A stretch of DNA of 64,000 nucleotides. Origin: Escherichia coli. Lineage in GTDB: Bacteria; Pseudomonadota; Gammaproteobacteria; Enterobacterales; Enterobacteriaceae. A program made the position numbers and the translations under genes. This document shows, in pieces, positions 14,064-15,180 of this stretch. Location: the NCBI RefSeq assembly GCF_003334385.1, contig NZ_QOWN01000023.1, one strand, 5' to 3'. The notes under the pieces are model-generated. The model was not told the DNA's origin, did no database searches, and saw only the letters and a list, made by a program, of their open reading frames with translations. How positions within the stretch are numbered: position 1 is the first letter of the stretch; every line of letters begins with the position of its first letter.

Positions 14064-14804
14064 ATGCTGCAAAATATTCGAATTGTGCTGGTGGAGACGT
14101 CACACACCGGCAATATGGGTTCTGTTGCCCGTGCCATGAAAACAATGGGATTAACCAATCTGTGGCTGGTTAATCCACTGGTGAAACCCGACTCCCAGGC
14201 GATTGCCCTGGCAGCAGGGGCCAGCGATGTGATTGGTAATGCTCACATCGTCGATACGCTCGACGAAGCGTTAGCCGGTTGTAGCCTGGTGGTGGGCACC
14301 AGCGCACGTTCCCGCACGCTGCCATGGCCGATGCTCGACCCGCGCGAATGCGGCCTGAAAAGCGTCGCTGAAGCGGCAAATACCCCGGTGGCGCTGGTGT
14401 TTGGTCGCGAGCGCGTCGGCTTGACCAATGAAGAGTTGCAGAAATGCCATTATCATGTCGCGATTGCGGCTAACCCGGAATACAGCTCGCTGAACCTGGC
14501 GATGGCGGTTCAGGTTATTGCCTATGAAGTGCGCATGGCCTGGCTGGCAACTCAGGAAAACGGCGAGCAGGTCGAGCATGAAGAGACGCCGTATCCGCTG
14601 GTCGATGATCTGGAGCGTTTTTATGGTCATCTGGAACAAACGCTGCTGGCAACCGGTTTTATCCGTGAAAACCATCCGGGGCAGGTGATGAATAAATTGC
14701 GCCGTCTGTTTACCCGTGCGCGCCCGGAAAGCCAGGAGTTGAATATCCTGCGCGGGATTCTGGCTTCTATTGAGCAGCAGAATAAAGGTAACAAGGCCGA
14801 ATAA
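14064..14804 (+). CDS. trmJ: tRNA (cytidine/uridine-2'-O)-methyltransferase (SPOUT)
   Basis: 246 aa SpoU-type product; immediately upstream of isc region. Confidence 0.9.
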
Positions 14805-15180
14805 CAGCCGTTGCCTGATGCGACGCGTAATGCGTCTTATCAGGCCTACAGTGAACAGAACCGTAGGTCGGATAAGGCGTTCACGCCGCATCCGACAGCC
14901 GTTGCCTGATGCGACGCGTAATGCGTCTTATCAGGCCTACAGTGAACAGAACCGTAGGTCGGATAAGGCGTTCACGCCGCATCCGACAGCCGTTGCCTGA
15001 TGCGACGCGTAATGCGTCTTATCAGGCCTACAGTGAACAGAACCGTAGGTCGGATAAGGCGTTCACGCCGCATCCGACAGCCGTTGCCTGATGCGACGCG
15101 TAATGCGTCTTATCAGGCCTACAGTGTACAGAACCCCAGGGCGGATATGGCGTTCACGCCGCATCCGACAACAGGTACAA
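14804..15180. repeat. BIME/REP cluster: four tandem ~91-92 bp units, each holding two inverted REP palindromes; last unit diverged
   Basis: Direct repeat with ATG landmarks at 14817, 14909, 15000, 15091; units contain GCCTGATGCGACGC...GCGTCTTATCAGGC and GTAGGTCGGATAAGGCGTTCACGCCGCATCCGACA. Confidence 0.9.

Follow-up and report, generated by a model that had tools for sequence, protein, structure and literature searches.

The window analysed here is a stretch of 64,000 nt of the Escherichia coli genome (contig NZ_QOWN01000023.1 of assembly GCF_003334385.1). It carries trmJ, also called yfhQ, and iscR, two genes separated by a spacer in which a short unit of DNA is repeated in tandem (Table 1). 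The gene trmJ is annotated as such both in the identical sequence of strain ML35 and in MG1655. The two flanking open reading frames (ORFs) lie on the same strand and confirm the position between trmJ and iscR that a preliminary description, made from the letters alone, had assigned to the array. The array begins 8 nt past the trmJ stop codon; it thus lies outside the genes, following the 3' end of trmJ and upstream of the iscR promoter block. It ends approximately 30 bp before a conserved block that we take to contain the IscR operator sites, the iscR promoter and the 5' UTR, the distance between the array and the iscR promoter being presumably roughly 75 bp. No REP features are annotated at the trmJ-iscR locus in the RefSeq records of the identical ML35 sequence and of MG1655.

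Table 1. Features of the trmJ-iscR region, in window coordinates. The y and z2 labels of the REPs are deduced as explained in the text.
Feature	Position	Strand	Description
trmJ CDS (tRNA Cm32/Um32 methyltransferase)	14064-14804	+	246-aa ORF; TAA stop codon at 14802-14804
8-nt gap CAGCCGTT	14805-14812	+	trmJ stop codon to first REP stem, read from the sequence
BIME-2 unit 1	14804-14894	+	z2 REP 14813-14849; tail-to-tail S linker 14850-14862; inverted y REP 14863-14896
BIME-2 unit 2	14895-14985	+	identical to unit 1; z2 REP 14904-14940; y REP 14954-14987
BIME-2 unit 3	14986-15076	+	identical to unit 1; z2 REP 14995-15031; y REP 15045-15078
BIME-2 unit 4	15077-15167	+	z2 REP 15086-15122, intact; y REP 15136-15169, partly decayed
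Rfam naRNA4 (RF02564) match 1	14866-14937	+	72.2 bits; gathering score 59.5
Rfam naRNA4 (RF02564) match 2	14957-15028	+	72.2 bits; gathering score 59.5
Rfam naRNA4 (RF02564) match 3	15048-15119	+	72.2 bits; gathering score 59.5
Conserved block upstream of iscR	15199-15346	+	alignable across Enterobacteriaceae (E. albertii, Citrobacter, Enterobacter, Kluyvera and others)
iscR CDS	15347-15835	+	ORF; annotated in the identical ML35 sequence

Tandem Repeats Finder delimited the array at 14804-15170, with a period of 91, 4.0 copies, 98% matches, no indels and a score of 699, and a separate repeat search of the window returned the same 91-bp register. Exactly four units of 91 bp fill positions 14804-15167. 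The four copies initially described are thereby retained with two corrections: the array stops at about 15167-15170 and not at 15180, and every unit measures exactly 91 bp, without indels, where 91-92 bp had been proposed. Units 1 to 3 are identical base for base, and three identical 91-mers cannot have originated by chance. Unit 4, correctly singled out from the start as diverged, differs from the others by five substitutions, one in the linker (15127) and four in the second REP (15136, 15137, 15141 and 15148).

Within each unit, 13 nt of linker separate a 37-nt z2 REP from a 34-nt y REP in inverted orientation. The first palindrome reads GCCTGATGCGACGCGTAATGCGTCTTATCAGGCCTAC, the tail-to-tail linker AGTGAACAGAACC and the second palindrome GTAGGTCGGATAAGGCGTTCACGCCGCATCCGAC, while neighbouring units are joined head-to-head through a linker of 7-9 nt. 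When folded as RNA, the 37-nt hairpin reaches -21.4 kcal/mol (z -6.5) and the 34-nt hairpin -17.4 kcal/mol (z -4.9); none of 200 shuffles was as stable in either case, and the two inverted REP palindromes per unit of the preliminary description are confirmed. The y REP of unit 4 has lost its GTAG foot, replaced by CCAG, and its fold is weaker than in units 1 to 3 (-14.6 kcal/mol, z -2.4). The array as a whole folds with a z of -11.

Two classes of REP-containing elements are to be considered here. BIME-1 elements combine a y and a z1 REP, occur in single copy and possess a long L linker with an IHF site, and BIME-2 elements combine a y and a z2 REP, possess a short S linker and are found as several copies in tandem, the number of which at any one locus differs from strain to strain (Ton-Hoang et al. 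2012). The hairpins of the array align almost base for base with those of REP325/naRNA4, whose units were described by its authors as Y + Z2. Only the 34-nt type is shared with a BIME-1-like element located at 22412-22508 of the window, so the 34-nt REP was labelled y and the 37-nt REP z2. These labels are a deduction from published definitions and internal comparison, no usable printed consensus of y, z1 and z2 having been found in the literature searched. With the labels so deduced, inverted y and z2 REPs alternate along the array; the linker is short (13 nt, versus 34 nt in the BIME-1-like element) and contains no L motif; the tandem copies are well conserved within the locus, three of the four being identical; alleles of one, two, three and four units, compared directly, distinguish strains from one another; and the element is intergenic, following a transcription unit at its 3' end.

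We conclude, with a probability of nearly nine in ten (about 0.88), that the trmJ(yfhQ)-iscR feature is a known E. coli BIME-2 element, present here in a rare four-unit state. The BIME-2 itself is already a catalogued repeat element: Supplementary Table DS3 of a gyrase study lists it as 'BIMEs2 2662088-2662353, 265 bp, <iscR-<yfhQ' (Sutormin et al. 2019). The strain used in that work is a W3110 derivative and carries a three-unit allele. The K-12 element and the present one share the locus, the unit sequence, the REP types, the short linker, the tandem arrangement and the position at a gene 3' end; they differ in number, the K-12 allele being that of the window minus one identical unit, three versus four.

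The state of the locus in other strains could be evaluated on a large scale, a comparison already called for in the preliminary description, which had anticipated a strain-variable spacer. The flanks of the locus were matched by all 5,426 complete E. coli genomes, and the number of units was found to range from one to four across the species. The four-unit query was matched as one uninterrupted piece in exactly 13 of these genomes. Six belong to natural or collection strains (ML35, N61, cM8a, B19374, 600055 and NCTC9080) and seven to laboratory strains (TOP10, XL1-Blue, XL10-gold, Stbl4, BL21(DE3) in record CP081489, BL21-RIPL and Rosetta2). The proportions of the shorter alleles were estimated from a systematic sample of 59 chromosomes taken down the ranking. 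A single unit (about 928 bp) was the most common state, in 28 of the 59 (~47%), followed by three units (the 1110-bp place; nine, ~15%) and two units (1019 bp; six, ~10%); one chromosome had four units. In the remaining 15, forming a 956-bp class, the flanks alone matched. No allele with more than four units was seen among the about 190 matches listed.

By the coverage criterion, the class in which only the flanks match amounts to 1,438 of the 5,426 complete genomes (~26%). Its structure is illustrated by EDL933 (O157:H7), where positions 703-1002 of the locus (L003) correspond to 14802-15346 of the window and a segment of approximately 120 bp replaces the REP pair. This segment contains a G-rich palindrome, CCCCTCGCCCCTTCGGGGAGAGGGTTAGGGTGAGGGG, which looks Box C-like to us. 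In strains of the EDL933 type, trmJ is one codon shorter and ends in ...NKGNKA before the stop. The trmJ-iscR spacer of E. coli exists in at least five length or sequence classes.

Compared base by base, the multi-unit alleles all obey the same rule: (n-1) identical units are followed, on the iscR side, by the same diverged unit. The diverged unit 4 is moreover the sole unit of strain SUISSEKPC3NDM5, and other single-unit variants are found in UTI89, STEC719, CT01 and E. albertii. In view of this shared structure, the array consists of one decaying resident unit, upstream of which intact units have been amplified. Gain and loss of whole identical units occur upstream of a fixed decayed unit that adjoins the iscR promoter. 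Over an adjacent 24 kb, strain 300709 matches the window at 100% identity, yet it carries three units; relative to MG1655, the window shows one extra unit and about 18 substitutions across 64 kb. The number of units, which ranges from one to four, changes faster than point substitutions accumulate. The changes most likely proceed by replication slippage or by unequal recombination between the identical 91-bp units, and a REP-associated transposase may also contribute. As a detail of the comparison with MG1655, the BLAST alignment starts at window position 73 and leaves positions 1-72 outside.

An array of identical units longer than a short sequencing read invites the suspicion that its fourth unit is a mis-resolved tandem repeat and that the true state of the window is three units. 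The preliminary description had raised such a worry about assembly, and it has some basis for several public laboratory-strain assemblies: seven of the 13 four-unit records are discordant with sister assemblies. These seven belong to laboratory strains with neighbouring accession numbers (CP080620, CP081007-CP081009, CP081489, CP083273 and CP083274). All other assemblies of these lineages among the matches listed have three units, namely MG1655, W3110, DH5alpha, C600 and J53 for K-12 and, for the B lineage, more than 20 records that include REL606 and the BL21(DE3) references. The three units of strain 300709, despite its identity to the window over the adjacent 24 kb, point in the same direction. 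The three identical units add up to 273 bp and exceed the length of short reads, from which it follows that short-read data alone cannot count them. Against an artefact in the window stands the fact that six unrelated natural or collection strains have exactly four units, with the same sequence. The window, which comes from a natural relative of K-12, is also outside the suspect laboratory batch, and its about 18 substitutions relative to MG1655 in 64 kb rule out a K-12 laboratory-strain assembly of that batch. Variable copy number is besides a documented property of BIME-2 loci (Ton-Hoang et al. 2012). The window does not belong to the laboratory batch and six independent strains share its allele; on these grounds we take the four-unit state to be real and rare, and an artefact to be unlikely. 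In the laboratory-strain batch itself, a unit may have been gained in assembly, or the stocks may truly differ. Reads shorter than about 300 bp cannot resolve the number of units, and differences between assemblies in this spacer should consequently not be taken as meaningful mutations without spanning reads.

The array can also be read as RNA. Three matches to the Rfam family naRNA4 exceed its gathering threshold on the plus strand (Table 1), each running from the y REP of a unit across the head-to-head linker into the z2 REP of the unit that follows. Taken at face value, the units would encode naRNA4-like, nucleoid-associated small RNAs with HU as binding partner and chromosome condensation as function, and their two-hairpin architecture equals the one reported to be necessary for HU-dependent DNA condensation. 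REP325/naRNA4, the BIME-2 located between yjdM and yjdN, indeed resembles the present element in its alternating y and z2 hairpins and in forming a tandem array between co-oriented genes. It differs in possessing six repeats versus four, in its locus and neighbours, and in its head-to-head linker, which is 6 nt longer than that of the array. Since REP325/naRNA4 is itself a BIME-2, matches to its model are to be expected here. They reflect a shared REP composition, as indicated by the minus strand of the array, which scores 57 bits with the same model. In addition, no promoter-like site is present in or before the array, the trmJ promoter aside. According to a 2026 preprint whose authors include the senior author of the original work, REP325/naRNA4 causes no measurable nucleoid compaction and acts locally as a 3'UTR element. 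It is thus highly improbable that the units are small RNA genes.

Assignment of the element to the IHF-binding BIME-1 (RIP/RIB) clusters is scarcely tenable. Its starting point is the generic statement that BIMEs bind IHF, and the array does have two traits in common with BIME-1, a y REP and an intergenic location next to a gene 3' end. The differences are more telling: in BIME-1 the partner of y is the short z1 REP, the L linker measures 34 nt and contains an IHF site, and the element is single-copy, whereas the linker of the array is 13 nt long, its second REP is of the 37-nt and not of the 29-nt type, and four tandem copies of its unit are present. The IHF core WATCAANNNNTTR was matched nowhere in 14790-15190, even with two mismatches allowed, and the four exact matches found in the window all lie outside the array. 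IHF binding at the array was rejected on these two grounds, the missing core and the wrong BIME class. The BIME-1-like element at 22412-22508 provides an internal comparison for the BIME-2 assignment. It is composed of a 34-nt CCGGAT-type REP, a 34-nt linker and an inverted 29-nt CCTGAT-type REP; its linker holds an IHF-like site, ATTCAACAAATTG, one mismatch from the core; and its 97 bp correspond to the modal length of BIME-1 in the published table (Sutormin et al. 2019). By coordinate mapping to MG1655, this element falls between pepB and sseB. Two further REP sequences were encountered in the window: a tail-to-tail pair with a 22-nt linker at 59418-59510, which maps between yfgD and hda, and a single y-type REP at 3582-3611, which maps between yphA and yphB.

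The possibility that the repeated ORFs of the array (MRRVMRLIRPTVNRT...) encode real small proteins, suggested by their ATG starts, by lengths of 33-76 aa on both strands and by the deposition of identical sequences as hypothetical proteins, can be dismissed almost with certainty, as these ORFs come and go with the number of units, about a quarter of strains lack the sequence and the deposited entries listed are limited to E. coli and are unnamed or misnamed. The ORFs beginning with MRRVMRLIRPTV start at 14909, 15000 and 15091, with mirror-image ORFs on the opposite strand, and their description as identical and spurious was accurate. A period of 91, not being divisible by 3, puts successive units in different reading frames, and the PGAP annotation of the identical ML35 sequence places no CDS in the array; protein-coding ORFs were rejected on these observations together with the E. 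coli-only hypothetical entries. Among the misnamed deposits, a 'nrdB protein' is the 33-aa minus-strand ORF and a 'mannitol-1-phosphate 5-dehydrogenase' is a 68-aa variant. A 60-aa repeat ORF is clustered with genuine TrmJ proteins in public protein collections. Both the Rfam 'naRNA4' labels at the unit junctions and the hypothetical proteins issued by gene callers are annotation by-products of the repeat.

The BIME-2 assignment was placed in a wider context by a DNA-pattern scan anchored on the iscR start, which covered 120 loci with one genome per species. In more than 100 of the 120, trmJ lies directly upstream of iscR on the same strand, and trmJ-iscR spacers in Enterobacterales measure 80-261 bp. 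A single z2 + y unit occupies this position in E. albertii (267 bp). Tail-to-tail pairs, each made of the taxon's own REP type, are present in Enterobacter asburiae, Citrobacter youngae, Pseudescherichia vulneris and a Pluralibacter, and single REPs in Kluyvera and two Citrobacter. The G-rich palindromes in the spacer of Pseudocitrobacter faecalis resemble those of E. coli alleles of the EDL933 type, and the spacer of Citrobacter werkmanii contains no element. In Enterobacter sp. Bisph1, a classical terminator made of a hairpin and a T run, AAGGGCGGGAAAAACGCCCTTTTT, is located where related genera have REPs; it fits a 3'-end or terminator role for whatever occupies the site. In the REP-bearing taxa, about 0-12 nt separate the trmJ stop codon from the first stem. 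Among the sampled species, tandem arrays were confined to E. coli. In all the spacers compared, conservation extends over the block between about 15199 and the iscR ATG.

As regards function, DNA gyrase cleavage sites mapped in vivo in the iscR-yfhQ BIME-2 numbered three with ciprofloxacin, six with rifampicin and ciprofloxacin, four with oxolinic acid and none with microcin B17 (Sutormin et al. 2019). In the same work, gyrase cleavage sites were over-represented in a subset of BIME-2s and depleted in BIME-1s (three observed versus nine expected); the sites in BIME-2s fell mostly in y REPs and rose when transcription was blocked (Sutormin et al. 2019). Gyrase action at this locus is thus already published through the counts obtained for the K-12 allele, and the claim that such clusters bind gyrase and IHF keeps its first half for K-12 and loses the second, the array having neither L linker nor IHF core. 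By analogy with the three-unit K-12 allele, we infer that the four-unit allele is a candidate gyrase site.

Consensus scans of the plus strand detected neither an intrinsic terminator (a G+C-rich hairpin followed by a T run) nor a sigma-70-like promoter within the array, and a classical terminator and an internal sigma-70 promoter were both rejected; what comes after the REP hairpins is AGTG... or AGCCG... and no T run. The broader idea that such a cluster can serve as terminator or insulator agrees with published work on BIMEs, including REP325. The latter stabilises the upstream mRNA and attenuates downstream transcription about 8-10-fold, partly via Rho. Genome-wide, tandem gene pairs separated by REPs show an expression biased toward the upstream gene, and REP effects are reported to be strongly context-dependent. 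According to Liang et al. 2015 as cited in PMC12306157, a gene is translated less when a REP follows its stop codon at a distance of at most 15 nt; the 8 nt that separate the trmJ stop codon from the first REP fall within this distance as cited (Liang, Rudd and Deutscher 2015).

From these precedents, roles at three levels can be proposed. At the DNA level, the y REPs would provide gyrase with a site of action, independent of transcription, immediately upstream of the iscR promoter and, with three of them intact, would absorb supercoiling generated by trmJ transcription or insulate the promoter from it. At the RNA level, trmJ transcripts would run into eight stable hairpins capable of blocking 3'-exonucleases. 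The hairpins would also attenuate in part the transcription that continues from trmJ into iscRSUA, comparable to the effect of REP325 on yjdM and yjdN. At the level of translation, the first hairpin, 8 nt past the stop codon, may lower TrmJ synthesis by stalling terminating ribosomes. In the literature searched, nothing was found on trmJ or iscR expression in connection with REPs; the trmJ-iscR pair is absent from the discussion of the REP325 preprint, whose supplement contains one unrelated iscR expression row.

Since ~26% of E. coli genomes carry another element instead, the BIME units are dispensable, and variation in their number may be selectively neutral. The number of units could be imagined as a fast-mutating dial that would set both the insulation of the IscR-autoregulated iscRSUA promoter from trmJ transcription, with its supercoiling wave, and the amount of TrmJ. 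This idea seems quite improbable to us. If it were true, strains with zero to four units would differ heritably in Fe-S homeostasis or in tRNA Cm32/Um32 modification, and the discordance between three and four units in laboratory strains could represent a real, recurrent expansion in culture. Should REP arrays tune their neighbours as REP325 does, the natural alleles of zero to four units in front of the well-studied PiscR would offer a convenient test case. The practical points concerning assembly and annotation outweigh the biology of the trmJ-iscR array.

Two other structured elements were noticed around iscR. A hairpin, CCCCGGGCAGGGG, at 15311-15325, which immediately precedes the ribosome-binding site of iscR, is shared by Enterobacteriaceae as a conserved element and was flagged by the terminator scan on the minus strand. 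Between iscR and iscS, positions 15836-15945 give a strong Rfam match (138 bits) to the iscRS 'iscR stability element' RF01517.
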